A stretch of 64,000 bases of DNA. It comes from Bordetella parapertussis. Its GTDB lineage: Bacteria; Pseudomonadota; Gammaproteobacteria; Burkholderiales; SG8-41. Within the stretch, counting starts at the first letter, position 1. The number at the start of each line of letters is the position of its first letter. The notes under the pieces are model-generated. The model was not told where the DNA came from. It saw nothing but the letters and a program-made list of their open reading frames with translations, and did no database searches. A program made the position numbers and the translations under genes. Shown here piece by piece: positions 7,069 through 59,858 of the stretch. The stretch covers positions 17,618 to 81,617 of the forward strand of contig CAMDRT010000009.1 of the NCBI GenBank assembly GCA_945906815.1. The letters run 5' to 3'.

Positions 7069-7164
7069 CTCACAAGAAACAAAACACCCCGCCTCACGTT
7101 TGATTGCGAACGCCTGACTTGCGCGCGGGATGGGGAGACGCTGCGGCCAAATGCTTTTTCCAGG
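7069..7164. repeat. Direct repeat copy 1 (about 95 bp) in the arsC-MIP intergenic region
   Basis: It aligns with 7286-7390. Both start with ctcacaagaa, share the core ttgcgaacgcctgac...gcgcgcggga and end with ggccaaatgctttttccagg. Roughly four in five positions match by eye. Confidence 0.8.
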
Positions 7165-7183
7165 ACTACTGATACCAACAACA

Positions 7184-7250
7184 CTCGTCACCCCGGCGTA
7201 CGCCGGGGTCCAGAAACGTACTGGATGCTGGCGTACGCCAGCATGACGAG
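7184..7250. repeat. REP-like compound palindromic element
   Basis: Outer arms ctcgtca/tgacgag enclose two perfect palindromes, ccccggcgtacgccgggg and tgctggcgtacgccagca. This resembles the nested-hairpin REP elements common in environmental proteobacteria. Confidence 0.75.
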
Positions 7251-7285
7251 GTGGTTTTAGTGAGAGCTGCGGTAAAGTATTCATG

Positions 7286-7390
7286 CTCACAAGAACGCTA
7301 TTATTCACCACCCCGCCCCATGTTTCTTTGCGAACGCCTGACCCGCGCGCGCGGGATTGGGAGACTCTGTGGCCCAATGCTTTTTCTAGG
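7286..7390. repeat. Direct repeat copy 2 (about 105 bp), ending 12 nt before the MIP start codon
   Basis: See copy 1 at 7069-7164. Confidence 0.8.
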
Positions 7391-7401
7391 TTAAAACGAA
7401 A

Positions 7402-8073
7402 ATGAACCTCCCCGCTACCCACCGCATCGCTGCTGAATTCGCAGGCACCGCACTGTTACTCGCCATTGTCGTCGGCTCCGGCATCATGGGCGAATCACTG
7501 GCCGGCGGCAACGCCGCGATTGCGCTGCTGGGCAATTCGATCGCCACCGGTGCGGGACTGTATGTATTGATCACAGTGCTGGGCCCCCTCTCGGGCGCGC
7601 ACTTTAATCCGCTGGTGTCGCTGACCTTTTGGCGCAGCGGTGAACTGACTTTGAGTTTGCTCGCAGCCTATGTGGCCGCGCAGGTGTGCGGCGGCATCAT
7701 CGGCGTGTGGCTCACGCATCTGATGTTCGACCTGCCGCTACTCCAGTTTTCCAGCAAGCTGCGCAGCGGCGTACCGCAGTGGATATCGGAGTTACTGGCC
7801 ACCGGCGTGCTGCTCGCCACCATTCATCTGGGGCTACGCCACGCCGCCGAGCGCGTGCCGCTGCTGGTGGCGCTGATCGTCACTGCCGGTTACTGGTTCA
7901 CCGCGAGCACTTTTTTTGCCAACCCGGCGGTAACGATAGCGCGTGCTTTTAGCAACACCTTTGCCGGCATACAGCCGGCCGATGTCGCTGGGTTTATCGC
8001 GGCGCAATGTATGGCCGCCGTGGCGGCCTGTGCTTTTGTCGGGCGCCGCTCCCCCCGAATGCCCTCCCAATAG
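7402..8073 (+). CDS. MIP-family channel (aquaporin/aquaglyceroporin; possible arsenite channel given arsC linkage)
   Basis: This is a 223-aa six-TM protein with the two MIP signature half-motifs GAHFNPLVS (NPL) and FANPAVTIAR (NPA). Confidence 0.85.
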   Translation: MNLPATHRIAAEFAGTALLLAIVVGSGIMGESLAGGNAAIALLGNSIATGAGLYVLITVLGPLSGAHFNPLVSLTFWRSGELTLSLLAAYVAAQVCGGIIGVWLTHLMFDLPLLQFSSKLRSGVPQWISELLATGVLLATIHLGLRHAAERVPLLVALIVTAGYWFTASTFFANPAVTIARAFSNTFAGIQPADVAGFIAAQCMAAVAACAFVGRRSPRMPSQ

Positions 8074-12264: not shown

Positions 12265-14364
12265 ATGAACGAACACCTCGCACCCAAACTGTTTCTCAAT
12301 CGCGAGCTCGGTCAACTTGCCTTCAACCGCCGCGTACTGGCGCAGGCCGTGGATGCCCGCACGCCCTTGCTGGAGCGGCTGCGATTTTTGTGCATCGTGA
12401 GCAGCAATCTGGACGAGTTTTTCGAGATTCGGGTCGCCGGGCTGCATGCAGAAATAGAAACCGGAACGCCGTCGTCGGGGCCGGATCAGCAGACCGCAGC
12501 GCAGATTTACCGTCAGGTCGCCAGCCTGGCGCACGAACTGGTCGCAGATCAATACCAGTTGCTCAACCGTGAGGTTATGCCGGCACTCGCGCGCGAAGGC
12601 ATCCACTTTCTTCAGAGCGGCGAGTTCAGTGCGGCACAAGCGGCGTGGATAAAGTCCTACTTCCACAACGCGGTGATGCCGGTGCTCACGCCGATCGGAC
12701 TCGATCCTTCGCATCCCTTTCCGCGCGTGTTAAACAAGAGCCTTAACTTCGCGGTCGAGCTGGAGGGCAGGGATGCCTTCGGCCGCAGCTCCGGGACGGC
12801 AATCGTGCAAGCGCCGCGCGTGCTGCCGCGCGTGATTCGACTACCGCACGACCTATCCGATGCAGACCACGCGTTTGTGCTGCTGTCGTCGATCATGCAA
12901 GCACACATGAGCGAACTGTTTCCTGGCATGCGGGTCATCGATAGCTACCCATTTCGCCTGACCCGCAACAGCGATTTGTTCGTGGACGAGGAGGAAGTTC
13001 AGGATCTGCGCGCGGCGTTAAGCGGCGAGCTGCCTCACCGCCAGTTCGGCGACGAAGTGCGGTTGGAGGTTTCCACCAATTGTACGCCCGCCATCACGGA
13101 TTTTCTGATGCATCATTTTCAGTTGGAGCCGGACGATGTGTATCGCGTGGATGGGCCCGTCAATCTGGTGCGTTTGCTGAGCGTGCCGGACGAAGTGAAT
13201 CGGCCCGATCTCCGGTTCCCGAAGTTCACGCGGGGGAAGGTGGCGCGCGCAGCCGATGCGGCAAGCCTGTTCGATGTCATCCGCGCCGGCGACATTTTGC
13301 TACATCACCCGTATCAGTCGTTTCAACCCGTGATTTCGTTCCTGCGGGAGGCCGCCGCCGATCCGCAGGTCGTGGCCATCAAGCAGACCGTTTACCGCAC
13401 CGGGTCAGAATCGGTGTTGATGGAGGCCCTGATCGCGGCCGCGCGCAGCGGCAAGGAAGTCACGGTGGTGCTGGAGCTGCTCGCGCGCTTTGACGAGGAA
13501 GCTAACATCAACTGGGCGCAGCGCCTCGAAGCGGTTGGCGCACATGTGCTGTATGGTGTGGTGGGCGTCAAGACCCACACCAAGATGCTGATGGTGGTGC
13601 GCCGCGAGGGGCGCACGGACCCGCCCGACGGCCACGCGCAGGTGCCGGATCTGCTGCGCCGCTATGTGCATCTTTCCACCGGCAACTACCATGCGCGCAC
13701 AGCGCGGCTGTACACGGATTTCGGCTTGTTCACCTGCCATGAAGAGATCACCGCCGACGTGAACGATGTTTTCATGCAGTTGACCGGGCTGGGGCTGACC
13801 ACGAATTTGCGGCACCTGTGGCAGGCTCCGTTCACGCTGCACGCGCGGATCCTGGATGCCATTCGCGCCGAGACGGCACGGGCCAAGGCGGGCCGCAAGG
13901 CAGCCATTATCGCGAAGATGAATGCGCTGCTCGAGCCGGAGGTGATCGGCGCTCTCTACGAGGCGTCGCAAGCCGGTGTGCAGATCGACCTCGTCGTGCG
14001 CGGCGTATGCGCGCTGCGTCCGGGTATGCCCGGTGTTTCGGAGCATATTCGCGTGCGCTCGATCGTGGGCCGCTTTCTCGAACACTCGCGGGTGTTCTGC
14101 TTCCATAACGATGGCGCGCAGGATGTTTACCTGTCGAGCGCCGACTGGATGGGGCGCAATTTTTTTGGCCGGATTGAAGCCTGTTTTCCCGTGCTCGATC
14201 CCGTGCTAAAACAGCGCATTATCGACGAAGGTCTCCAGCCTTACCTGGAAGATCCGCACGCCTGGCTGATGCATGAGGATGGGACTTATCAGCGTGCGGC
14301 AGCAGACGGTGCGCCCGATGCGCAGCAGCGGCTGCTGCAAGCGTTCGCGTATCACAGCCGGTAG
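12265..14364 (+). CDS. ppk: Polyphosphate kinase 1
   Basis: This is a 699-aa protein with the PPK1 N-terminus (FLNRELGQLAFNRRVL, LRFLCIVSSNLDEFFEIRV) and two PLD-like HKD-type regions (KTHTKM, FLEHSR). Confidence 0.95.
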   Translation: MNEHLAPKLFLNRELGQLAFNRRVLAQAVDARTPLLERLRFLCIVSSNLDEFFEIRVAGLHAEIETGTPSSGPDQQTAAQIYRQVASLAHELVADQYQLLNREVMPALAREGIHFLQSGEFSAAQAAWIKSYFHNAVMPVLTPIGLDPSHPFPRVLNKSLNFAVELEGRDAFGRSSGTAIVQAPRVLPRVIRLPHDLSDADHAFVLLSSIMQAHMSELFPGMRVIDSYPFRLTRNSDLFVDEEEVQDLRAALSGELPHRQFGDEVRLEVSTNCTPAITDFLMHHFQLEPDDVYRVDGPVNLVRLLSVPDEVNRPDLRFPKFTRGKVARAADAASLFDVIRAGDILLHHPYQSFQPVISFLREAAADPQVVAIKQTVYRTGSESVLMEALIAAARSGKEVTVVLELLARFDEEANINWAQRLEAVGAHVLYGVVGVKTHTKMLMVVRREGRTDPPDGHAQVPDLLRRYVHLSTGNYHARTARLYTDFGLFTCHEEITADVNDVFMQLTGLGLTTNLRHLWQAPFTLHARILDAIRAETARAKAGRKAAIIAKMNALLEPEVIGALYEASQAGVQIDLVVRGVCALRPGMPGVSEHIRVRSIVGRFLEHSRVFCFHNDGAQDVYLSSADWMGRNFFGRIEACFPVLDPVLKQRIIDEGLQPYLEDPHAWLMHEDGTYQRAAADGAPDAQQRLLQAFAYHSR

Positions 14365-47889: not shown

Positions 47890-49809
47890 ATGAGTACCAA
47901 CCAGAAGCATTTTCTACAACAACAGGGACCCTTTGCCGGCCTGCTGTTGCTGTGTCTGGCGCTGGGCGTGGCGACCGCCGCCAGCTTCGATGCGTGGAGC
48001 GACGGCGGCGACGGTGAATCCAGCGCTGCCGGGGTTTACGCGGCAGGCGCCGCCGCGCTGACGTTGGTGATAGCGGCGGCGCTGACCTGGCTTAACCGGA
48101 TGACGCAAGCGCAAGCGGCTGCACACGACGCTGGCGCGCGCGAACGGGAGGACCACGCGCACTTGTGGGCGCTGCTGAGCAGCATGGAGCTGGGCATGCT
48201 TTTCATGTCGGAGCGCGGGCATGTGGTGTATTGCAACCCCGCATTTTTACGCATCTGGAAAGTGCCGCCGGAGCCGGGCGTGATCGGTGCGACGCTGGAC
48301 GAGTTGCTCACGCTAACCGGCTGCACCCTGGCGCGTCCCGCCGAACAGTCGCGGTTTGTGATGCGCGCGCCACCCGGCGACAGCGCCGGGGTCAAACTCG
48401 ATTTGGCGATGGCCGACGGGCGCTTCATCACCCAGCAAAGCCATCCGGTAAACGACGCGCTGGGCCGCCTGTGGGTGTTCGAAGATGTGACGGTGGAGCG
48501 ACGTAACGCCACACAGTTGGTGCAGTTGACCGAGCGCGATGCGTTGACCGGGCTCTACAACCGTCACCGCTTCAACGAAGAAAGCGTGCGCATGAGCGCT
48601 GACGCACAACGCAACGGCACGCGGCTGGCGCTGCTGTTTTTTAATCTTGACGGCTTTAAACACATCAACGATACCTTTGGCCACCGCGCGGGCGATGCCA
48701 TGCTGATTAAGGTGGCGAGCGAGATTGGCGGCCAGGTGCGCCGCAATGAAATATTCGCACGGCTGCGCGGTGATGAATTCGCGATTCTGGTGCCGGACGC
48801 GGTAGACGAATTGCTCAGAGTGCTGGCGGAAAGAGTCACCCGCTCGATCAGTCAGATGCGCATCGCGTTCGAGGGGCAGACGATGCGCGTCTCCTGCAGT
48901 TGTGGCATCGCGGTGTGTCCCGACAACGCCACCACGCCCGGCACCCTGATGGCATGCGCCGACGCCGCCATGAATCAGGTCAAAGAGGCGGGCAAGAATG
49001 ACTGGCGCTTTTACCGTTCGCCCACTGCTGCCAGGCAGGCCTCGATGCTGTCGCCGCTGTCGCCCGAGGGGCGCATACGGCATGCGCTGGAAAATAATCT
49101 GCTGGTGCCACATCTACAAGGCATTTACGCCACCGGCAGCCACGCGCTGCGGCACTATGAAGTGCTGATGCGTGTGCGCGACCCGGAAAATCCGCACGCC
49201 ATGCTGCTGCCCAACGCATTTATTGCGATGGCAGAAAAATCCGCCAGCATCGTGGATGTCGACCGCTGGATGCTGGCGCAGGCGATACAAAAATTGGGCG
49301 CGGCGCCGGGCATACCGGCGCTCGCAGTGAACGTCTCCGGCCGCTCGCTGGATGACGCAACGCTGCCCGCGTTTATCGCCGGCGAGCTCCAGCGCCACGG
49401 TGTAGCCGCGCAACGCCTGTGGGTGGAGTTGACCGAGACCGCGGCGGTGTCAGACCTGCATGACGCGCGGCGCTTTATCGAAGCGTTGCAAGCCACCGGC
49501 TGCAGCGTGAGTCTGGATGATTTTGGCAACGGGTTTGCGTCGTTCGCGTACCTCAAGCACCTGAACGTGGATGCCATCAAGATCGATGGGCTGTTCATTC
49601 GCGACCTGCCGCAAGATCGCGAGAACCAATTGTTCGTGCAGGCCATCGTCACGGTCGCGCGCGGGCTGCACAAAACCACCATCGCTGAATGCGTCGAAGA
49701 CGAGGCCACGCTCAAAATACTCGCCACCCTGGGCGTGGATTATGTGCAGGGCTTTCATTTTGAAATGCCGCATGTGATGTCGGAAAACGGAAAAATAACA
49801 CCAGCCTAA
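47890..49809 (+). CDS. Membrane PAS-GGDEF-EAL signalling protein (degenerate GGDEF, EVL-type EAL)
   Basis: The GGDEF position reads RLRGDEF. The EAL position reads YEVLMR, with downstream DDFGNGFAS and KIDG motifs. Confidence 0.85.
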   Translation: MSTNQKHFLQQQGPFAGLLLLCLALGVATAASFDAWSDGGDGESSAAGVYAAGAAALTLVIAAALTWLNRMTQAQAAAHDAGAREREDHAHLWALLSSMELGMLFMSERGHVVYCNPAFLRIWKVPPEPGVIGATLDELLTLTGCTLARPAEQSRFVMRAPPGDSAGVKLDLAMADGRFITQQSHPVNDALGRLWVFEDVTVERRNATQLVQLTERDALTGLYNRHRFNEESVRMSADAQRNGTRLALLFFNLDGFKHINDTFGHRAGDAMLIKVASEIGGQVRRNEIFARLRGDEFAILVPDAVDELLRVLAERVTRSISQMRIAFEGQTMRVSCSCGIAVCPDNATTPGTLMACADAAMNQVKEAGKNDWRFYRSPTAARQASMLSPLSPEGRIRHALENNLLVPHLQGIYATGSHALRHYEVLMRVRDPENPHAMLLPNAFIAMAEKSASIVDVDRWMLAQAIQKLGAAPGIPALAVNVSGRSLDDATLPAFIAGELQRHGVAAQRLWVELTETAAVSDLHDARRFIEALQATGCSVSLDDFGNGFASFAYLKHLNVDAIKIDGLFIRDLPQDRENQLFVQAIVTVARGLHKTTIAECVEDEATLKILATLGVDYVQGFHFEMPHVMSENGKITPA

Positions 49810-49836
49810 AATAGCGTCGCTCGCCACACCAGGAAA

Positions 49837-51462
49837 TTGCCCATGCACTGGATCTCCCCTGCAGAGAAGGACATCGGCACCGCCACGCTGGAAAAACGCC
49901 TGTGGGATGCCGCCGACCAGTTCCGCGCCAACTCCGGCCTCAAGGCCCAGGAATATTCCGCGCCGGTGCTTGGTCTCATCTTCCTGCGCTTCGCCGAAGT
50001 GCGCTTCGCCGTGCAGCGCGCCAAGCTGGAGAAAGGTGATGCCTCGTCGCGGCGAGGCTCGCGCGTGGAACAACCTGCTGCCTACTACGCCGCAGGCAGC
50101 CTCTACCTGCCCGCCGAGGCGCGCTTCGATTACCTGCTCAACCGCCCGGAGGGCGACGACATCGGTGCCAGGGTCAATGCCGCCATGCGCGACATCGAAA
50201 AGCACAACCCGCAGCTCGCCGGCGTCCTGCCCAAAACCTACAACCTCTTCACCAGTACCCTGCTCAAGGAACTACTCAAGAATATCTCCGAGATACCCGC
50301 CTCGATGGATTACGACGCCTTCGGGCGCATCTACGAATACTTCCACGGCGAGTTCGCCCGCAGCGAGGGCCAGAAAGGCGGCGAGTTCTACACCCCCAGC
50401 ACCATGGTTCGCCTCCTCACCGAAGTCATCGAGCCGTATCACGGGCGCATCCTCGACCTCGCGTGCGGCACGGGCGGCATGTTCGTGCAATCTGCCCGTT
50501 TCGTGGCCGAACACAAAAACAACCCCGCTGCGGAACTCTCCATCCATGGCGTCGAGAAAACCGACGAAACCGGACGCCTGTGCCGCCTCAATCTCGCCGT
50601 CCACGGTCTCGAAGGCGATATCCGCCACGGCGGCAACGTCAACAGCTACTACGACGACCCGCACAATGCCACCGGCCGCTTCGACTTCGTGCTCGCCAAT
50701 CCGCCGTTCAACGTCAACGCCGTCGACAAGGAGCGTCTGAAAGACGCCGTCGGCCCGGGCCGTCGCTTTGCCTTCGGCCTGCCGCGCACCGACAACGCCA
50801 ACTACCTGTGGATACAACTCTTCCACTCCGCGTTCAATGAAAAGGGCCGTGGCGGATTCGTCATGGCCAACTCCGCCTCCGACGCGCGCAGCTCTGAGCA
50901 GGACATCCGCAGCCAACTCATCGCCAGCCGCGTGGTGGACGTGATGGTCGCTGTCGGCCCGAACATGTTCTACACCGTCACCCTACCCTGCACCTTGTGG
51001 TTCCTGGACAAGGGCAAGACGCAATCAACGCGCGGCGACACCGTGCTGTTCCTCGATGCTCGTCACATCTACCGGCAGGTGGACCGCGCGCACCGTGATT
51101 GGGCGCCCGCGCAGCTTGGCTTTCTCGCAAACCTTGTACGGCTCTATCGCGGCGATGAACTCGACTTTACCCTCGGCGGCGACGAAGCCCGCGCGAAGAT
51201 CGAAGAACTCTTCGGCAAGAAACCGAAATACGCCGACGTACCTGGCCTGTGCAAGGCTGCGACATTGAAAGAGATTGAAGCGCAAGGATGGAGTCTCAAT
51301 CCCGGGCGCTACGTGGGCGTGGCCGCAGGCGACGCCGTGAGCGACGAGGACTTCAAGGAACAACTCGAAACCATGAACGAGGAACTCGAAGTCCTCAACG
51401 CCCAAGCGCGCGACCTCGAACGAACCATCGCCGGCAACGTGGCGGAGATTCTGGAAACATGA
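49837..51462 (+). CDS. hsdM: Type I restriction-modification system methyltransferase subunit HsdM
   Basis: It has an HsdM N-terminal domain ([11 protein letters not shown]), SAM motif [10 protein letters not shown] and catalytic motif IV LANPPFN. Confidence 0.92.
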
Positions 51463-52505
51463 GCGCTTCAAAAGAAATCCATCCTCCAGCCAATGGCCAA
51501 TTCCTAGTCTATACGGCCGAGGACGGGCGGACGAAAATCGAAGTCCGGCTGGAGAACGAAACCGTCTGGCTGACTCAGCAGCATATGGCCGATCTCTTTC
51601 AGACTACCAAGCAGAACGTGAGTCTGCACCTACAAAACGTCTTTTCGGAGCGGGAGTTGGAGCGCGAAGGAACTGTCAAGGAATCCTTGACAGTTCAACA
51701 GGAGGGCGGGCGTTCAGTCCAGCGGCGGATGGAGTTTTACAACCTCGACGCCATCATCTCCGTCGGCTACCGCGTCAAAAGCGCCGTCGCCACCCGCTTT
51801 CGCATCTGGGCCACGCAGAACCTGCGTGAATTCATCGTCAAGGGCTTCGTCCTCGACGACGAGCGCCTGAAAAATCCCGACCAGCCTTTCGATTATTTCG
51901 ACGAGTTGCTGCGGCGGATTCAGGACATCCGCACCTCCGAGCGGCGCTTTTACCAGAAGATCACCGACATCTACGCCACCAGCATCGACTACGATCCCAC
52001 CCAGCCGCTCAGCATCGAGTTCTTCCAGACCGTGCAGAACAAAATGCACTGGGCCATCACCGGCCACACGGCAGCGGAGATCATCCATACCCGTGCCGAT
52101 GCCGCGAAGCCCCACATGGGGCTGACCAACTGGCGCGGTGCGAAAGTCCGCAAGCACGATGTCACCATCGCCAAGAATTATCTCGACGAGCAGGAACTTG
52201 CCGTGCTGAACAACCTGGTTGAGCAATACCTCGTGTTCGCAGAAGGCCAGGCCATGCGCCGCGCTCCCATGCACATGCGCGACTGGATCAGCAAACTCCA
52301 TGGCTTTCTGACCTTGAACGAACGCGCCATTCTGAACCATGCAGGAGAAATATCGCACGAGATGGCGAAGGAACTCGCGGAGGCGGAATACGAGAAATTC
52401 CAACGCGAACAGATTAAGCAAGCCGACCAGGCTGGCGGCGATTTCGACAAGGCCATCAAACAAGTGCCGTCCCAGCCACAACGGAAGAAGGCGAGCAAGA
52501 AATGA
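51459..52505 (+). CDS. rhuM: RhuM-family protein (COG3943-like) embedded in the type I R-M operon
   Basis: The ATG overlaps the hsdM stop (ATGA). The N-terminus [48 protein letters not shown] and the block [15 protein letters not shown] match the remembered RhuM pattern. Confidence 0.8.
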
Positions 52506-52587
52506 GCGGCTCGACAAATGCAAATGGAAGCGCGCAACTTCGAACAACCGTCGCCGGGAACGAAGTGGCGATTCTGGAGGAGTAACG

Positions 52588-52737
52588 ATGGCAAAGGATT
52601 GGCGAACAGCGAAGCTTGGTGAGTTGGTTGCCTTCAAGGCAGGCAAGCTTGACTCAAATGCCGCAGTTCCTGATGGCGACTACACGCCATCGGCTGCCAC
52701 AACAGTGATGTGGCCATGCAGGTGCAGAATTTGCTGA
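52588..52737 (+). pseudogene. hsdS: Truncated hsdS (specificity subunit) stub, about 49 codons
   Basis: A GGAGG RBS precedes MAKDWRTAKLGELVAFKAGKLDSNAAVPDGDY, which looks like the start of an HsdS target-recognition domain. The similarity then ends and a stop follows. No second TRD or central/C-terminal conserved helices occur anywhere in the locus. Confidence 0.5.
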
Positions 52738-52793
52738 AGTCTCAACACCATCGTCCGGCAGTGACTGTCGAATCGGAGTGGTATTATTAAATC

Positions 52794-53858
52794 ATGATGA
52801 AACTGACTCAGGGCAATTTGCTGGCCGCGCCTACCGAGGCACTGGTGAACACCGTGAACACGGTAGGCATCATGGGGCGCGGCATCGCACTGCAATTCAA
52901 ACAGGCGTATCCGGCGATGTTCCGCGAATACGAGCGCGCGTGCAAGGCAGGCGAGGTAAAGCTCGGCCAGGTGCAGGTGGTCGACCTCGGCGGGCTGGCA
53001 GGCGGGCCGCGCTGGATTCTCAATTTCCCTACCAAGGGGCACTGGCGAGCGGATAGCCGCATGGGGGATATCGAGTCGGGGTTGAAGGATTTGGTGGCAA
53101 CGATTCAGAAGCTGAATATCCGTTCGATTGCGATTCCTCCGTTGGGGTGCGGGAATGGCGGCTTGGATTGGAATGATGTCCGTCCCCGCATTGAAGCAGC
53201 ACTCGCGGCAGTGCCAGATGTGGAGGCGCTGGTTTACGCGCCGGGTGCAGCGCCCGAGGCAGCCGCGATGCCGGTTCGGACGGAGCGTCCCAAGATGACC
53301 ATGGGACAGGCGGCAATGATCATATTGATGGATCGCTATCTGAAAGGGTTGCTCGACCCGTTCATCAGCCTGCTGGAGATTCACAAATTATTGTATTTCT
53401 TGCAGGAAGCAGGACAGCCTTTGCGTCTGAATTTTGAAGCGAAACGTTTTGGTCCGTATGCCACGAACTTGCGACAGGTGCTCATCCGCATGGAGAAGCA
53501 CTACACGCAAGGTTACGGGGACGGGAAAGACAGTCCTACCCAACCGATTGAAGTGTTACCCGGGGCGATGGAGGAGGCAGGTAAGTATCTGGCCGGAGAT
53601 GAAACCATTCGCGCACGAATGAGCCGGGTGGCGACGCTCATAGAAGGTTTCGAAGACGCCTACGGCCTGGAGCTCCTGAGTTCGGTGCATTGGGTGATGC
53701 AAAAGAATCCCGAAGCACGCGCGAATTCCGAAACGGCGGTGGCGGCGGTTCACAAATGGAACGCGCGCAAGCGGCGCACCTTGAAGAAGGAGCATATCCT
53801 CGCCGCGTGGGAGCGGCTCAGAGTGCAGGATTGGAGCGAGTCATTCGCGACCGTGTAA
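52794..53858 (+). CDS. Macrodomain protein resembling antitoxin DarG (DNA ADP-ribosyl glycohydrolase) with C-terminal partner-binding-type domain
   Basis: The N-terminal macrodomain blocks are EALVNTVNTVGIMGRGIALQFK, ILNFPTKGHWR and IPPLGCGNGGLDW. The length (354 aa) is similar to known DarG proteins. The C-terminal half contains EIHKLLYFLQEAGQPLRLNFEAKRFGPY, which resembles the Panacea/DUF4065 antitoxin signature. Confidence 0.7.
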   Translation: MMKLTQGNLLAAPTEALVNTVNTVGIMGRGIALQFKQAYPAMFREYERACKAGEVKLGQVQVVDLGGLAGGPRWILNFPTKGHWRADSRMGDIESGLKDLVATIQKLNIRSIAIPPLGCGNGGLDWNDVRPRIEAALAAVPDVEALVYAPGAAPEAAAMPVRTERPKMTMGQAAMIILMDRYLKGLLDPFISLLEIHKLLYFLQEAGQPLRLNFEAKRFGPYATNLRQVLIRMEKHYTQGYGDGKDSPTQPIEVLPGAMEEAGKYLAGDETIRARMSRVATLIEGFEDAYGLELLSSVHWVMQKNPEARANSETAVAAVHKWNARKRRTLKKEHILAAWERLRVQDWSESFATV

Positions 53859-53880
53859 GCTAAGCGGTAGCACTTCTTCG

Positions 53881-54318
53881 ATGAGCGCCCACGCCTACAC
53901 CGAAGACCAACTCGTCGAGCAGCCCGCCATCGCATTGTTCGCGGAGCTAGGCTGGATCACGGTGTCAGCGTTGGAGGAAACCTTCGGCGCGACCAGCACC
54001 TTGCTGCGCGAGACCAAAGGCGAGGTGGTGTTGGTGGCCCGGTTGCGGGCAGCGTTGGACCGCTTGAATCCCGCGCTGCCGCCGGAGGCCATCACCGCCG
54101 CCGTGGATGAATTGACCCGCGACCGTTCGGCCACGAGTCTGGAAGCGGCGAATCGCGAAGTGTATCTGCTGCTCAAGGAGGGTATCAAGATTTTCGTGCC
54201 CGATCACGAACACGGCGGGCAGAAGACGGAGCGCTTGCGGGTAGTGGATTGGGAGCATCCGGCGAACAATGATTTTCTGCTGCTCAGCCAGTGCTACGTC
54301 ATTGGAGTAATTCACTGA
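53881..54318 (+). pseudogene. Duplicated 5' fragment of hsdR (N-terminal 137 codons, ends before the nuclease motif)
   Basis: Positions 53881-54292 align with 55709-56135 at roughly nine in ten positions by eye, with a net 15-bp length difference from two small indels. The fragment stops before the PD...ELK nuclease motif and lacks all helicase motifs. Confidence 0.75.
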
Positions 54319-55706
54319 TGGAAATTTCGCGGCTACTCACGCTTCCGGAGGGCAAGACGCTCGAATTCAAGCGGAACCTGTCGTCGCCGAAGCCAGTGTT
54401 GCGAACGCTGGTGGCGTTTGCCAATACGGCTGGCGGGATGTTGATCATTGGCAGAGCTGATGATGGTGCGGTTGTCGGGGTGGATGATGTATTGGCTGAA
54501 GAGGAACGGCTGGCCAGCCTGATCGCAGACAGCATTGCGCCTGCCATGATGCCCGAAATCGAGGCCGTCACTGTAGACGGCAAAACGTTGTTGCTGGTGC
54601 GCGTAGCTCACTGGCCGGGGCCGTTTTACCTGAAGGAGAAAGGGCCCGCGGATGGCGTGTATGTGCGGCTGGGTTCCACCAACCGTAAGGCGGACGCGAC
54701 CCTGCTCGTAGAACTGGACCGGGTGCACAGCCATAGCGCTTTTGATCAACTGCCCTGTACTGGCACCTCGCCGGGTGATCTGGACAGGGAGGCGGTGCTA
54801 CGCTGGTTTTCCGACAAGAATCGCAACATGGATGCAGCAGCACTGGAATCGCTGGGTATTCTGGCACGCCATGGCAGCGGACGCATGGTCTCCAATGGCG
54901 GCTTAATCCTGTTCGGCAAGGCCGACGTCCGTCAGCGCTGCTTTCCGGATGCCCGCCTTTCCTGCGCGCGCTTTCGCGGCAGCGACAAGAGTGCGTTTAT
55001 AGACCGGCAGGAAATGGAAAGTCTGCTGGATGCAATGACCGAAGTGCCAAAGTTCATTGCCCGTAACACGCGGTTGGCATCGCGCATCGCAGGCATGCAA
55101 CGGCAGGACATCCCTGAATACCCAGCTATTGCTATTCGCGAGGTGCTGGTCAATGCCTTGGCCCATGCCGATTATGCGTGTACCGGTATGCGCATTTTCG
55201 TTTCGATTTTTTCTGATCGGCTAGAAATTCAAAGCCCTGGGATGTTTCCTTTCGGCATGACCCTGGATGATTTCAGGGCGGGTGTAAGCCGAATCAGAAA
55301 TCGCGTGATCTGCCGCGTATTGCATGAGGCGGGACTGATGGAGCAGTGGGGCAGCGGATACCAACGGGTCGTGAACACCTGTATCAGTCAAAACTACCCT
55401 GAACCGGAATGGCAGGAGTTAGGGGCGTGTGTGCGGGTGATATTCCGTCCGCATCCTGATGTCCCTGTAAATGAGCCTGTAAATGAGCCTGTAAATGAGC
55501 CTGTAAATGAGCGGCAACGCTGGTTTATGGCGCAGCTCCAACGCGGTGGGCAGGTCAAAGCTGAAGCTATCGTGAGTCAGTGGAAGGTCAGTCTGGCGAC
55601 AGCCAAACGAGACATTGCATTGCTGCGGAAAAAAGAGTTGGTCGAGTTCGCTGGGGCTGCCAAAACGGGCAGCTATCGATTGAAAACGCCAGGAAATATT
55701 CGCTAG
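54318..55706 (+). CDS. AlbA_2/Schlafen-type divergent AAA domain protein with HATPase_c_4-like region and C-terminal wHTH
   Basis: The ATG overlaps the stop of the hsdR stub. The N-terminus EGKTLEFKRNLSSPKPVLRTLVAFANTAGGMLIIG is the AlbA_2 signature. The mid-region has IREVLVNALAHADY and GSGYQRV, and a C-terminal HTH-like tail follows. Confidence 0.8.
   Translation: MEISRLLTLPEGKTLEFKRNLSSPKPVLRTLVAFANTAGGMLIIGRADDGAVVGVDDVLAEEERLASLIADSIAPAMMPEIEAVTVDGKTLLLVRVAHWPGPFYLKEKGPADGVYVRLGSTNRKADATLLVELDRVHSHSAFDQLPCTGTSPGDLDREAVLRWFSDKNRNMDAAALESLGILARHGSGRMVSNGGLILFGKADVRQRCFPDARLSCARFRGSDKSAFIDRQEMESLLDAMTEVPKFIARNTRLASRIAGMQRQDIPEYPAIAIREVLVNALAHADYACTGMRIFVSIFSDRLEIQSPGMFPFGMTLDDFRAGVSRIRNRVICRVLHEAGLMEQWGSGYQRVVNTCISQNYPEPEWQELGACVRVIFRPHPDVPVNEPVNEPVNEPVNERQRWFMAQLQRGGQVKAEAIVSQWKVSLATAKRDIALLRKKELVEFAGAAKTGSYRLKTPGNIR
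55464..55511 (+). repeat. Perfect 12-bp tandem repeat x4 (cctgtaaatgag) encoding (VNEP)4
   Basis: Read directly from the sequence. It lies in the linker between the ATPase-like region and the wHTH tail. Confidence 0.95.
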
Positions 55707-55708
55707 CC

Positions 55709-58700
55709 ATGCCCCACGCCTACACCGAAGACCAACTCGTAGAGCAGCCCGCCATCGCGCTGTTCGCGGAGCTGGGCTGGACCACGGTGTCGGCATTGGA
55801 GGAAACCTTCGGCGCGACCGGCACCCTGCTGCGCGAGACCAAGGGCGAGGTGGTGCTGGTGGGCCGGTTGCGCGCGGCGTTGGAGCGCATGAATCCCGCG
55901 CTGCCGCCGGAGGCCATCACCACCGCCGTGGATGAATTGACCCGAGACCGTTCGGCCATGAGCCTGGAAGCGGCGAATCGCGAGGTGTATCTGCTGCTCA
56001 AGGAGGGCATCAAGGTATCGGTGCCTGAAAACGAACCCGATGGGTTGCGCGGGCGCGGCGGGCAGAAGACAGAGCGCTTGCGGGTGATGGATTGGGCGCA
56101 TCCGGCGAACAATGATTTTCTGCTGGTCAGCCAGTTCAGCGTCACCGGCGCGCTCTACACCTGCCGGCCGGATTTGGTGTGCTTCGTCAACGGCCTGCCG
56201 CTGGTGGTCATCGAGTTGAAAAAGCCCGGCGTACCCGCGCGCGCGGCGTTCGACGAAAACCTGACGCACTACAAGCAGCAAGTGCCGGCGCTGTTCTGGT
56301 ACAACGCGCTGCTCATCGCCTCGAATGGCACCGATAGCCGCGTCGGCTCGCTGACGGCGGATTGGGAACGGTTCTTCGAGTGGAAGCGCATCGAGCGCGA
56401 GGACGAGCCGCGCCGCGTGTCGCTGGAGGTGATGTTACGCGGCACCTGCGACCGCACACGGCTGCTCGACCTGCTGGAAAACTTCACCCTGTTCTCGGAG
56501 CACAAGTCCGGGCTGGTGAAGATCATCGGGCAGAATCACCAGTTCCTCGGCGTGAACAACGCCATCGCCTCGATGCTCGCCGCGCGCACGCTGGGCCACG
56601 GTCGCGGCGGCGTGTACTGGCAGACGCAGGGCAGCGGCAAGAGTTTCTCGATGGTGTTCTTCGCGCAGAAGGTGCTGCGTAAGGTGGCAGGCAACTGGAC
56701 GTTCGTGGTGGTGACCGACCGCGTGGAACTGGACGAGCAGATTGCGAAGACGTTCAAGGCCGCCGGCGCGGTAAGCGAAACCGAAGGCGAGCAGTGCCAC
56801 GCCGCCAGCGGCGCGCACCTGCGCGAACTGTTGCGCGGCAATCATCGCTACGTGTTCACGCTCATACATAAGTTCCAGACGCCGGAGATGCTGTGCGACC
56901 GGCCCGATGTGATGGTGCTCACGGACGAAGCGCATCGCAGCCAATACGACACGCTGGCGCTGAACATGCGAGCGGCGCTGCCAAAGGCGCTGTTCCTCGC
57001 TTTCACCGGCACGCCACTCATCGCCGGCGAGGAACGCACGAAAGCGCTTTTCGGCGATTACGTTTCCATCTACGATTTCCAGCAATCGGTCGAGGATGGC
57101 GCGACCGTGCGGCTGTTCTACGAGAATCGCACGCCGGAGTTGCAGCTCGTCAACCCGGACCTGAACGAGGACATCTACAACCTGATTGAGGCGGCGGAAC
57201 TCGACCCCGAACAGGAAACAAAGCTCGAACGGGAGTTGAGCCGGCAATACCACATCCTCACCCGCGATGACCGGCTGGAAACCGTGGCGCAGGACATCGT
57301 GCGGCATTTCCTCGGGCGTGGTTTCATGGGCAAGGCGATGGTGGTATCCATCGACAAGGCCACCGCGCTCAAGATGCACAACAAGGTGCGCAGGCACTGG
57401 GCTGCAGAACGGGCGCGGGTAGAGAGGGAACTGGGGCGCGACGACCTCGCGGCGGAGCAGCAAGTTGAGCTATTCAAACATCTGGCCGTAATCCAGACAA
57501 CCGACATGGCGCTGATCGTCTCGCCCGGCCAGAACGAGATTCAGCACATGCAGGCGCGCGACCTCGACATCGTGCCGCACCGCAAGCGCATGAACGAATC
57601 GAACCCGTCGCTGGACGAAAAGTTCAAAGACCCTGACGACCCGCTGCGGCTGGTGTTTCTGTGCGCCATGTGGCTGACCGGTTTCGATGCGCCCAGCTGT
57701 TCCACGGTGTATCTCGACAAACCGATGCGCAATCACACGCTGATGCAGACCATTGCGCGAGCGAACCGCGTGTTCCCCGGCAAGCACAGCGGCGTGATTG
57801 TGGATTATGCGAACGTGTTCGTGTCACTGGAGAAAGCCCTTGCCATCTATGGCGCCGGCAAAGACGGCAAGACGCCAGTGCGCGACAAAAAGCAGCTCGT
57901 TGAAGACCTGCGGCGCTCTGTGGCAGAGGCCACTGCGTTCTGTACTAAGCACGGCGTGGAATTGCCCGCCATTGAGCAACTGGCTGCCGGGGGTATGGAG
58001 AAGCTGGCCCGGATAGACGACGCGGTCAATGCGCTGATCTCGCCCGACCCGCTGCGCAGGGAATTCCTCGCGCATGAGCGTATTGTGAAAACGCTTTATG
58101 ACGCGGTGAAGCCGGACCCTGCCGCGCTGGAGTTCGCACCCCGCATCGGTTGCCTTGCTGCCATCGCCGGCGCCATCCGCGCCAAAATCAATCCCGGCAG
58201 CCCGGACATCTCCGGGGTCATGGGCCAGATCAATTCACTACTCGACGCCTCGATTGAAGGCGTCACGATGTCTGACAAGGCAGTGCCGGCGCTGGATCTT
58301 TCAAAGATCGATTTCGAAAAGCTTGCCGCTCATTTTAAGGCGACCCGGCACAAGAATATTGAACTGGAATCGCTCAAAGCGGCGGTGCGCGCGATGCTTG
58401 AGCGCCTGATCCATTTGAACAAAACGCGCGCCGATTTTCAGGAAAGGTTCGAGGAACTGATCGACGCCTACAACGCCGGCAGCAAGAATATCGATGATCT
58501 GTTCGCTGAATTGTTGGTACTTAGCCGTGCCTTGACTGAAGAGCAGACACGCCACGTACGCGAGAACCTGACCGAGGAGGAATTGACCATTTTGGACATC
58601 CTTACCCGGCCTGCACCGGCGTTGAACAGTGGGGAGCGCGATGAAGTGAAGAAAGTCGCGCGTGAACTGCTTGCGCGCCTTAAAGAACTGCTGGTGCTGA

Positions 58701-58882
58701 ACTGGCGTGGAAAGGCGTCGGCACGCTCGCAAGTCAAGCTCGCGATCGAAGACATCCTCGACAGCGGATTGCCGCGTGTCTACACCCCCGACCTCTATCA
58801 GCAGAAATGCTCGGCGCTATTCGAGCATGTCTATGAGAGCTATGCCGAGCGCAATCAGGGTGTATACGCGGCAACGGCGTGA
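55709..58882 (+). CDS. hsdR: Type I restriction enzyme R subunit HsdR
   Basis: It has the nuclease motif RPDLVCFVNGLPLVVIELKK, helicase motif I TQGSGKS, DEAH box LTDEAHRSQ and motif VI QTIARANR. The C-terminal domain matches type IC/ID-like HsdR length (1057 aa). Confidence 0.95.
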   Translation: MPHAYTEDQLVEQPAIALFAELGWTTVSALEETFGATGTLLRETKGEVVLVGRLRAALERMNPALPPEAITTAVDELTRDRSAMSLEAANREVYLLLKEGIKVSVPENEPDGLRGRGGQKTERLRVMDWAHPANNDFLLVSQFSVTGALYTCRPDLVCFVNGLPLVVIELKKPGVPARAAFDENLTHYKQQVPALFWYNALLIASNGTDSRVGSLTADWERFFEWKRIEREDEPRRVSLEVMLRGTCDRTRLLDLLENFTLFSEHKSGLVKIIGQNHQFLGVNNAIASMLAARTLGHGRGGVYWQTQGSGKSFSMVFFAQKVLRKVAGNWTFVVVTDRVELDEQIAKTFKAAGAVSETEGEQCHAASGAHLRELLRGNHRYVFTLIHKFQTPEMLCDRPDVMVLTDEAHRSQYDTLALNMRAALPKALFLAFTGTPLIAGEERTKALFGDYVSIYDFQQSVEDGATVRLFYENRTPELQLVNPDLNEDIYNLIEAAELDPEQETKLERELSRQYHILTRDDRLETVAQDIVRHFLGRGFMGKAMVVSIDKATALKMHNKVRRHWAAERARVERELGRDDLAAEQQVELFKHLAVIQTTDMALIVSPGQNEIQHMQARDLDIVPHRKRMNESNPSLDEKFKDPDDPLRLVFLCAMWLTGFDAPSCSTVYLDKPMRNHTLMQTIARANRVFPGKHSGVIVDYANVFVSLEKALAIYGAGKDGKTPVRDKKQLVEDLRRSVAEATAFCTKHGVELPAIEQLAAGGMEKLARIDDAVNALISPDPLRREFLAHERIVKTLYDAVKPDPAALEFAPRIGCLAAIAGAIRAKINPGSPDISGVMGQINSLLDASIEGVTMSDKAVPALDLSKIDFEKLAAHFKATRHKNIELESLKAAVRAMLERLIHLNKTRADFQERFEELIDAYNAGSKNIDDLFAELLVLSRALTEEQTRHVRENLTEEELTILDILTRPAPALNSGERDEVKKVARELLARLKELLVLNWRGKASARSQVKLAIEDILDSGLPRVYTPDLYQQKCSALFEHVYESYAERNQGVYAATA

Positions 58883-59110
58883 TAGGGATAGTTCGCCTTC
58901 TCAGCGCTCCGGTACAATCGGCTACGGCGCTGTGGCACACTCCGACGCGGACTTGCACCGTGCTGATTTGGTGCCATCACGGGCGCACGATTCTGGCTGC
59001 CGCCAGGGCGCCCTTCGGGCATCCATTGACCTGCTCTGCGGCGCCATTGCCGTGGATTTTAAATTCCGAAATAATTCCGTAATATCAAATACTTACAATG
59101 AGGCTTCGCC

Positions 59111-59392
59111 ATGGCAAGAACTGTGAAATGTATCAAGTTGGGACGCGAGGCCGAGGGCCTGGATTTTCTCCCGTATCCGGGCGAGCTGGGCAAACGGATT
59201 TTCGACAACGTGTCGAAAGAGGCGTGGAAGCAGTGGCTCGAACAACAAAAGATGCTGGTTAACGAAAACCGCCTTAGTCTCGCCGATAAAAAAGCGCGCG
59301 ATTATCTGGCGCAGCAAATGGATAAGCATTTCTTTGGCGGCGGTGCGGATGCCGCGGCCGGATACGTGGCACCGGACAAAAAATCCAGTTAA
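59111..59392 (+). CDS. yggX: Fe(2+)-trafficking / oxidative-damage protection protein YggX
   Basis: The sequence [42 protein letters not shown] is a near-canonical YggX N-terminus. Confidence 0.85.
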
Positions 59393-59408
59393 AAGCCATA
59401 TCAAAAGC

Positions 59409-59858
59409 ATGGACTTACTGTTATGGCGTCATGCCGACGCAGGCGCGGGATTTCCGGATCACGAACGCGCGCTGACTGACACCGGCAGGCTGCAGGCCCA
59501 ACGCATGGCGGCGTGGCTGAACGCGCGTCTGCCGCTGGATACGCTGGTGCTGGTGAGTCCGGCGCTGCGCGCGCAACAAACCGCCAGCGCGCTGCAACGC
59601 GAGTTCACCACTTGCGCTGCGCTTGATACCTCCACCGATTGCGCGAGCCTGCTCCAAGCACTCGGCCCGCGCCAGCAGCTAGGCACTACCCTCATCGTCG
59701 GTCATCAACCCACGCTAGGCCGTGTGGCGTCGCTGCTGTTAAGCGGCGCCGAAGCTGAACTCAGCGTAAAAAACGCCGCGGTGTGGTGGCTCACGCTGGG
59801 CCGCGAGAGCAATACGCAGGCGGTGCTGCGCGCGGTGATGACGCCGGAGCTGCTCTGA
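59409..59858 (+). CDS. sixA: Phosphohistidine phosphatase SixA
   Basis: It has the histidine-phosphatase RH motif LLLWRHADAG and a downstream GHQP block. It is about 150 aa long. Confidence 0.8.
   Translation: MDLLLWRHADAGAGFPDHERALTDTGRLQAQRMAAWLNARLPLDTLVLVSPALRAQQTASALQREFTTCAALDTSTDCASLLQALGPRQQLGTTLIVGHQPTLGRVASLLLSGAEAELSVKNAAVWWLTLGRESNTQAVLRAVMTPELL

Follow-up and report, generated by a model that had tools for sequence, protein, structure and literature searches.

In the enteropathogenic Escherichia coli (EPEC) strain E2348/69, DarTG2 sits inside a type I restriction-modification (R-M) locus between hsdS and hsdR. The island is phage-defensive, and its hsdS-hsdR site has been termed a "potential recombination hotspot" by the authors (PMC12255303). 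More generally, genes embedded in type I R-M, BREX and DISARM loci represent a recognised class, also called "guilt-by-embedding", which is frequent in type I loci (10.1101/2024.01.29.577857). Stand-alone Schlafen-GHKL ("Schlatpase") modules have been described in type I R-M operons (10.64898/2026.05.29.728809), and the anticodon nuclease PrrC of the type IC locus EcoprrI is encoded between hsdM and hsdS, its latency being dependent on the R-M complex (PMC12707154). Phages carry orphan DarG-like antitoxins as counter-defence genes that neutralise DarT (PMC11825919, PMC13309987). Here we describe a locus within a 64-kb stretch of contig CAMDRT010000009.1 (the window; all coordinates are window positions), in which hsdM, rhuM, a remnant of hsdS, darG, a 5' stub of hsdR, a Schlafen/AlbA_2 gene and hsdR follow each other. 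This locus is very probably a decayed copy of the known composite island, i.e., a type I R-M system with DarTG between hsdS and hsdR, and not a new system. An earlier note on this DNA had left two options, a decaying R-M locus with passengers or embedded proteins that replace or redirect target recognition, and had not recognised the combination as a described system. The first option is supported by a remnant of darT, by a single deletion and by relatives with intact darT, and loci of this kind have already been published (PMC12255303; 10.1101/2024.01.29.577857; 10.64898/2026.05.29.728809).

Profile searches with Pfam and PADLOC models, together with a map of open reading frames (ORFs), recovered all seven elements listed in the earlier note at the same positions, co-directional on the + strand and tightly packed. 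The gene overlaps were likewise as claimed, with ATGA at hsdM/rhuM, TGATG at the hsdR stub and the AlbA_2 gene, and a gap of 2 nt between the AlbA_2 gene and hsdR. Two features had been overlooked, a 3' remnant of darT and a 3' remnant of hsdM. With the RRDM-type (RptR-RMS-DarTG-M48) EPEC island the locus shares the core order hsdM-(hsdS)-(darT)-darG-hsdR on one strand, and in most relatives of the locus darG lies directly upstream of hsdR, as in the RRDM-type island (PMC12255303). In comparison to that island, only 32 codons of hsdS and the last 36 of darT are left, and the published mode of action is therefore closed to both modules. The locus is also devoid of RptR and of the downstream M48 peptidase gene: 33 nt lie between the stop of the GGDEF-EAL gene (49809) and the hsdM start (49843), the hsdR stop and yggX are 228 nt apart, and there is no credible ORF in either gap. 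Two extra passengers, rhuM and the Schlafen-GHKL gene, are present in the window and not in the RRDM island.

The specificity subunit had been described as reduced to about 49 codons. This is indeed the length of the ORF, but only the first ~32 codons are hsdS. In a three-frame reading of 52560-52800, hsdS homology stops at ...VPDGDY, and the ORF is a chimera that extends to 52737 through the darT remnant read out of frame. From ~52680 another frame reads LHAIGCHNSDVAMQVQNLLKSQHHRPAVTVESEWYY, followed by a stop codon. When DarT of L016, L005 and L006 was used in tblastn, residues 171-206 of 206 matched this segment with 61-64% identity and E values from 5e-12 to 3e-11. It has no start codon, is read in another frame than the hsdS stub and sits directly upstream of darG. 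We take the catalytic glutamate of DarT to be that of the AEFL motif in the relatives, upstream of what is retained here. Judged by its sequence, the darT toxin gene is dead, its catalytic part being deleted. A tblastn search of the 64-kb window with four HsdS and four DarT proteins of relatives yielded no second hsdS or darT, the darT remnant being the sole match.

To place these remnants, related loci were compared. A genome scan for DarG returned 80 loci, with a best DarG identity among genome contigs of 80-89%. In the closest type I family (L015, L016, L020, L021, L033, L049 and others with enough flank) the order is hsdM-hsdS-darT-darG-hsdR, and HsdM, DarG and HsdR are 71-80% identical to those of the window. 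The ORF upstream of darG in L016 matches Pfam DarT with 1.6e-50. Across the 80 loci, nearly all DarG relatives with sufficient upstream sequence contain a full or near-full darT that ends 3-40 nt before darG, and a few, e.g., L057 and L058, gave partial darT matches only. Since both remnants in the window abut out of frame and the relatives have the complete gene order, hsdS and darT appear to have been lost in one deletion, which would have fused hsdS codon 32 to darT codon 171 and removed most of hsdS together with the catalytic part of darT. The junction is located at ~52680-52686, and the deletion size is estimated at ~1.7 kb from gene sizes in relatives.

Truncated genes of this kind might also reflect a misassembly or a frameshift error, as the earlier note had considered for hsdS, with hsdS and darT intact in the organism. 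The assembly is indeed metagenomic, with the matching contig k141_1120376 broken within hsdR, and short-read assemblers could be misled by the repeated hsdR 5' end. However, the exact DarG protein is present on contigs from four samples (L001-L004; two from ENA, two from Logan), and in all four assemblies rhuM, stub and darG are collinear with the window and the junction is identical. As it is shared by four assemblies, the junction does not stem from faulty assembly, and the full-length hsdS that the earlier note had named as a refuting outcome was seen in none of them. Two of the assemblies can be told apart by single-nucleotide polymorphisms (SNPs) elsewhere: L001 has 3 SNPs relative to the window and lacks one 12-nt repeat unit, and L002 has 9 SNPs, all of these differences lying away from the junction. 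Moreover, ~1.7 kb is missing and not a single base, and with 7-9% divergence and an 18-nt indel between them, the two hsdR 5' copies are no collapsed or duplicated repeat. The probability of an artefact is thus practically negligible.

The claim that HsdM and HsdR are intact was borne out by end-to-end alignment with relatives at 77-80% identity without frameshifts, and the motifs quoted earlier (NPPF, GSGKS, DEAH, QTIARANR and PD..ELK) are present in the translations. By comparison with homologues, hsdM starts at ATG 49843, the mechanical ORF beginning at TTG 49837. HsdM residues 1-539 are 76-80% identical to HsdM of L015, L016, L020 and L033, and HsdR residues 1-1054 are 77% identical to L016 and L020. 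HsdR has a nuclease part, an SF2 motor and a C-terminal part, shown by the Pfam domains HSDR_N (8e-42), SWI2_SNF2 (2e-66), T1R_D3-like and T1RH-like_C, and the PADLOC match covers residues 6-1030. Of the subunits of a type I R-M system, HsdM and HsdR are therefore present at full length with their domains, while HsdS, with its two target-recognition domains and conserved regions, is represented by the N-terminal remnant alone. Type I methylase (M2S1) and endonuclease (R2M2S1) complexes cannot assemble on DNA without HsdS. With HsdS lost, HsdM and HsdR cannot recognise DNA, and neither methylation nor restriction is expected. R-M function would thus be lost, barring a same-family hsdS elsewhere in the genome.

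The macrodomain protein, previously called DarG-like, turned out to be a bona fide full-length DarG, with residues 1-344 aligned to positions 1-327 of 329 in the PADLOC profile. Its macrodomain matches the DarG macrodomains of PDB entries 5m3i and 5m31 with 2e-55, the FPTK.HW motif being conserved, and the C-terminal residues 168-342 match 7yk3_B with 6e-27, corresponding to the DarT-binding domain. Both parts expected of the antitoxin in a DarTG system are hence in place, and of the toxin gene directly upstream nothing but the 3' remnant is left. Loss of DarT means that no toxin is made and that DarG is an orphan antitoxin. On a speculative note, it could shield against incoming DarT toxins, by analogy with the DarG-like enzymes of phages. 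Like these, it is an ADP-ribosyl glycohydrolase of the DarG type that has no DarT partner. Unlike the phage cases, it is chromosomal and was orphaned when its own toxin gene was deleted, of which the 3' remnant still bears witness (PMC11825919, PMC13309987). The locus is best classed as a degraded type I R-M locus with embedded defence genes, as it is neither a functional type I system (no HsdS) nor a DarTG system (no DarT). This calls for caution in annotation: tools based on hidden Markov models would report DarG, HsdM and HsdR even though neither the R-M nor the toxin-antitoxin system can function.

Table 1 Features of the locus, with window positions and the evidence for each.
Feature	Position	Strand	Evidence
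hsdM, type I methyltransferase subunit, full length	49843..51462	+	Pfam N6_Mtase 2e-71, HsdM_N 1e-21; PADLOC MTase_I 1e-230
rhuM, intact passenger gene (PADLOC candidate defence family PDC-S05)	51459..52505	+	Pfam Virulence_RhuM 6e-115; PDC-S05 2e-146
hsdM 3' end, duplicated and diverged, ~19 codons, frameshifted	52527..52585	+	Local alignment to hsdM 3' end
hsdS stub ORF, 49 codons	52588..52737	+	PADLOC Specificity_I 3.5e-4, residues 2-41
hsdS 5' remnant, ~32 codons	52588..52683	+	Specificity_I match; frame analysis
darT 3' remnant, last 36 codons and stop	52680..52790	+	tblastn with DarT of relatives
darG, DNA ADP-ribosyl glycohydrolase antitoxin, full length	52794..53858	+	PADLOC DarG 8e-132
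hsdR 5' stub, 145 codons, pseudogene fragment	53881..54318	+	Pfam HSDR_N 1e-19, profile positions 2-120 of 198
Gene for Schlafen/AlbA_2 + GHKL-type HATPase_c_4 + C-terminal HTH protein, intact passenger	54318..55706	+	Pfam
hsdR, type I restriction/translocase subunit, full length	55709..58882	+	Pfam; PADLOC REase_I 1e-167
Inserted island, ~9.3 kb	49795..59069		Between GGDEF-EAL gene (47890-49809) and yggX (59111-59392)

With HsdM and HsdR intact and the genes co-directional and tightly coupled, the second option of the earlier note deserves consideration, i.e., a composite new system in which DarG and/or the Schlafen-GHKL protein replace or redirect target recognition for HsdM and HsdR. The latter protein bears a C-terminal helix-turn-helix (HTH; HTH_DeoR, a weak match of 0.009), and a Schlafen-GHKL module reportedly fused to a type I specificity subunit in Poribacteria hints at some functional contact with type I systems (10.64898/2026.05.29.728809). 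Yet hsdS and darT were lost in one deletion that left their remnants out of frame, which is a scar and no designed architecture. Relatives of the AlbA_2 protein with 65-82% identity coexist with a full-length hsdS in L064, L085 and L088, and DarT is found almost always directly upstream of DarG relatives. Nor do macrodomain and AlbA_2 gene form the pair that had been suggested, as no more than 3 of 160 related loci have them within 10 kb of each other. Two of these cases come from the 80 DarG loci, with the genes adjacent only in L064 and 8 kb apart in L067. This frequency fits common passengers of defence loci that meet occasionally, and no conserved module. No further S-less locus of the same architecture was found among the related loci, and a sister lineage shows the same island eroding. 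We consider a new system very improbable. On a short metagenome contig (L107, 456-3239), an AlbA_2 homologue with 40% identity lies directly upstream of darT-darG, the sole case in 80 AlbA_2 loci.

As a system, the locus is of little import, being a broken copy of an island of a kind described and experimentally characterised before, with passengers from families already flagged as defence candidates. It does provide a readable example of how such an island is built up and lost, with three scars in 2 kb that would represent two cargo acquisitions and one deletion. Comparison of the site between the GGDEF-EAL gene and yggX in related genomes, which the earlier note had suggested, revealed both an empty site and an eroded island. 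In L178 and L179 (74% amino acid identity in the GGDEF-EAL protein), yggX follows 86 nt after the GGDEF-EAL stop, and blastn matches to the window break off at 49773 and set in again at 59070. Given this empty site, the ~9.3-kb block is an insertion. In the sister lineage (L175-L177, GCA_945864585.1), whose flanks are 88-92% identical, only the last 41 hsdM codons are present directly after the GGDEF-EAL gene, and this fragment (L175 11988-12114) is 83% identical to window positions 51336-51462. The island has eroded independently at the same site in this lineage. The sister lineage thus displays the next stage of erosion, the more distant relative the empty site.

Several side observations concern the site itself. 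All three independent contigs of the sister lineage end ~180 nt beyond the hsdM fragment, a hint of a repeat or of sequence that varies between strains. In its GC profile, the island does not stand out from the flanks. Names attached to homologues of the flanking genes point to Burkholderiales or Betaproteobacteria, though they are no proof. In L178 (12007-14918) a polyphosphate kinase (ppk) gene is located between yggX and a SixA-like phosphatase gene, the counterpart in the window being 59111-59858. The ppk homologue of the window lies at ~12289-14277, so the region has been rearranged.

A history in three steps can be proposed. In the first, an hsdM-hsdS-darT-darG-hsdR island would have been inserted between the GGDEF-EAL gene and yggX. 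In the second, rhuM would have entered the hsdM/hsdS junction and the Schlafen-GHKL-HTH gene the darG/hsdR junction, probably by recombination with other type I loci, in which an illegitimate joint on one side was paired with a crossover in a conserved core gene on the other. The diverged hsdM 3' duplicate after rhuM and the 145-codon hsdR 5' stub before the AlbA_2 gene would be the scars of these events. The third step would be the single ~1.7-kb deletion between hsdS and darT.

A number of points weigh against this account. The second and third step may have occurred in either order, as may the two cargo acquisitions, each of which may have gone in either direction. The view is limited to 64 kb, and a same-family hsdS elsewhere could complement HsdM and HsdR in trans. 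A pre-deletion allele, with rhuM followed by full hsdS-darT, was not found: look-ups of the exact DarG, RhuM and hsdR-stub proteins gave the same architecture only, and of the closest RhuM homologues (86-91% identity), one follows hsdM on a contig too short to be informative (L167) and several lie in contexts other than type I loci, with no ancestor among them. Both the size of the deletion and its single-step nature are derived from relatives at 70-80% identity. Strain differences are non-synonymous in 4 of 4 distinct cases in hsdM, in comparison to 5 synonymous and 2 non-synonymous ones in rhuM and none in darG; this is suggestive of relaxed constraint on hsdM, at SNP counts too small for a formal test. 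Finally, HsdM, HsdR and DarG are intact and DarG is identical in four assemblies. That the three proteins are still full length points toward an evolutionarily recent deletion, and it would equally fit continued selection.

A rival reading is adaptive remodelling in place of neutral decay. According to this scenario, the deletion was selected because it removed a costly toxin and autoimmunity-prone restriction, orphan DarG was kept against DarT that arrives with mobile elements or from other strains, stand-alone defence is provided by RhuM and the Schlafen-GHKL protein, and HsdM and HsdR may use an hsdS elsewhere in the genome. In line with it, the full-length DarG retains both its conserved macrodomain motif and the DarT-binding domain at the C-terminus, and it does not vary between the strains seen, and orphan DarG-like enzymes of phages neutralise DarT (PMC11825919, PMC13309987). 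Furthermore, 5 of the 7 strain differences in rhuM are synonymous, and rhuM is autonomous outside type I loci (L168). Intactness is, however, equally expected soon after a neutral deletion. The hsdM differences are all non-synonymous, hsdM is almost entirely gone from the sister lineage, and the 80 relatives did not clearly include a further lineage with an orphan DarG. Taken together, we regard adaptive remodelling as unlikely and continue with decay of a known island as the preferred reading.

The window resembles the published class of embedded genes in that rhuM matches PDC-S05 and lies between hsdM and hsdS and in that variable cargo precedes hsdR, and departs from it in that the host system is itself broken (10.1101/2024.01.29.577857). 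RhuM is a full-length member of its family, matching PF13310 over profile positions 2-248 of 252 and PDC-S05 over positions 8-337 of 342. At least 7,997 homologues were found at E<=1e-50, and they occur both within type I loci (L167) and outside (L168 and other close ones too). No experimental anti-phage evidence for RhuM was found in the literature on type I-embedded genes, the PDC families being candidates by genomic context. Downstream of rhuM, the hsdM 3' remnant aligns to hsdM 51403-51455 with ~80% identity and a 1-nt indel. It translates to SAQLRTTVAGNEVAILEE followed by a stop, ending in TVAGNEVAILEE and the stop, and was compared with the C-terminal end of HsdM itself. The remnant probably marks the original hsdM/hsdS junction and would be a scar of the rhuM acquisition. 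The arrangement of hsdM, rhuM and hsdM 3' remnant recurs in L167, whose RhuM is 91% identical. Small inserted genes are also seen at the hsdM/hsdS junction of relatives, the slot taken by rhuM in the window. These are either pairs of ~98-aa ORFs resembling toxin-antitoxin modules or a ~280-aa gene (L015 3725-4566; L021 7497-8050; L028 6616-7455; L043 3255-4115; L044 5865-6701).

The second passenger encodes an AlbA_2/Schlafen domain (SLFN_AlbA_2, PF04326; 5e-22, residues 11-125) followed by a GHKL-type ATPase domain (HATPase_c_4, PF13749; 2e-24, residues 290-376) and therefore qualifies as a Schlafen-GHKL module. The order of the two domains is the same as in Schlatpases and in Schlafen-associated prokaryotic Argonautes (SLFN-pAgo), and the protein matches the N-terminal part of a PADLOC pAgo model with 5e-17. 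Unlike SLFN-pAgo, the window protein has no Argonaute core and carries its C-terminal HTH after a variable (PVNE)n linker, which is encoded by a 12-nt tandem repeat at 55459-55518 (10.64898/2026.05.29.728809). The nearest solved structures, 3lmm and 2kyy, are of uncharacterised proteins. By analogy with SLFN-pAgo and CRISPR-associated Schlafen proteins, and by its position with PrrC in EcoprrI, the protein may, speculatively, be an RNase effector that acts through RNA-cleaving abortive infection. PrrC offers a model for a Schlafen-type RNase backing restriction, since in both cases the gene of a (here putative) RNA-cleaving abortive-infection effector lies inside a type I operon. Unlike PrrC, to which it has no sequence relationship, the window protein is not implied to depend on an R-M complex, and none can form without HsdS (PMC12707154). 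If working at all, RhuM and the Schlafen-GHKL protein are probably autonomous defence genes. With respect to the linker, L001 has one (PVNE)n unit fewer, and AlbA_2 homologues carry other short repeats at the same position, e.g., VNEG, PVNV and ANVG.

Upstream of this gene, the hsdR stub stops short of the PD..ELK nuclease motif. Positions 53886-54301 of the stub are 91-93% identical to hsdR 55711-56144 over ~415 nt, apart from an 18-nt indel. This degree of difference rules out a fresh tandem duplication as the origin of the stub. A mobile element that brought in the AlbA_2 gene was ruled out as well, because the island is free of integrase and transposase genes and the same-slot cargo of relatives is unrelated. 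The slot between darG and hsdR is empty in some relatives and filled with unrelated cargo in others, namely Fic in L007, L008 and L019, DUF488 with an unknown gene in L013, HipA with a HIRAN-domain protein in L038, an AbiEi-like gene with an uncharacterised downstream ORF in L044, and an AlbA_2 gene in L064. Fragments of the hsdR 5' end, 24-96 codons long and some with internal stops, directly follow darG in many unrelated genomes (L008 9717-10004; L013 1548-1634; L038 11064-11276; L044 9075-9200 and 11069-11149; L028 11217-11342; L075 11058-11129). In L008, L013, L038 and L044 the hsdR fragment is followed by variable cargo and then by full hsdR, an arrangement that resembles a recurrent recombination scar.

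A scan with the AlbA_2 protein covered 80 loci. Its closest relatives with usable flanks are located in type I loci, with L085 being 82% identical over residues 1-460. The gene is positioned directly upstream of hsdR in L064 (70% identity), L085, L088 (65%) and L090 (60%), and ~1.7 kb upstream in L087 (67%). Repeatedly, AlbA_2 homologues are preceded by a 5' stub of another gene, either AbiEi-like, Fic or the hsdR of another type I family (L064 11193-11363; L085 3857-4168; L086 24-194; L088 8846-9016; L087 9564-9785; L090 3778-4053). The stop of the AbiEi-like stub overlaps the AlbA_2 ATG as TGATG, and L090 shows the arrangement of stub, AlbA_2 gene and hsdR seen in the window, independently. 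A candidate for a conserved partner gene upstream of AlbA_2 in L064, L085, L086 and L088 proved to be a 56-codon AbiEi-like stub, of which a full copy is found in L088 at 7077-7760.

Based on the hsdR 5' stubs (24-145 codons) before Fic, HipA, AbiE and DUF488 cargo and on the Schlafen-GHKL genes behind 5' stubs of other genes, in several cases with overlap of stub stop and gene start, we tentatively suggest, as an idea that falls somewhat short of being probable, that core-gene fragments flanking cargo, in the window the hsdM 3' end behind rhuM and the hsdR stub ahead of the AlbA_2 gene, may be signatures of a general shuffling route between type I R-M operons by one-side-anchored recombination with an illegitimate joint on the opposite side. 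We found no description of recurrent core-gene stubs beside cargo in the literature on embedded type I genes, and they constitute a modest observation. As such stubs are seen in unrelated genomes, they might explain how "guilt-by-embedding" cargo moves between operons. If the route were general, the stubs could help to trace how cargo was exchanged and allow a systematic search for new embedded defence genes. As a minor observation on the AlbA_2 family, two or more diverged paralogues with 25-30% identity lie side by side on the metagenome contigs L094, L097, L100, L101, L102, L105 and L164.

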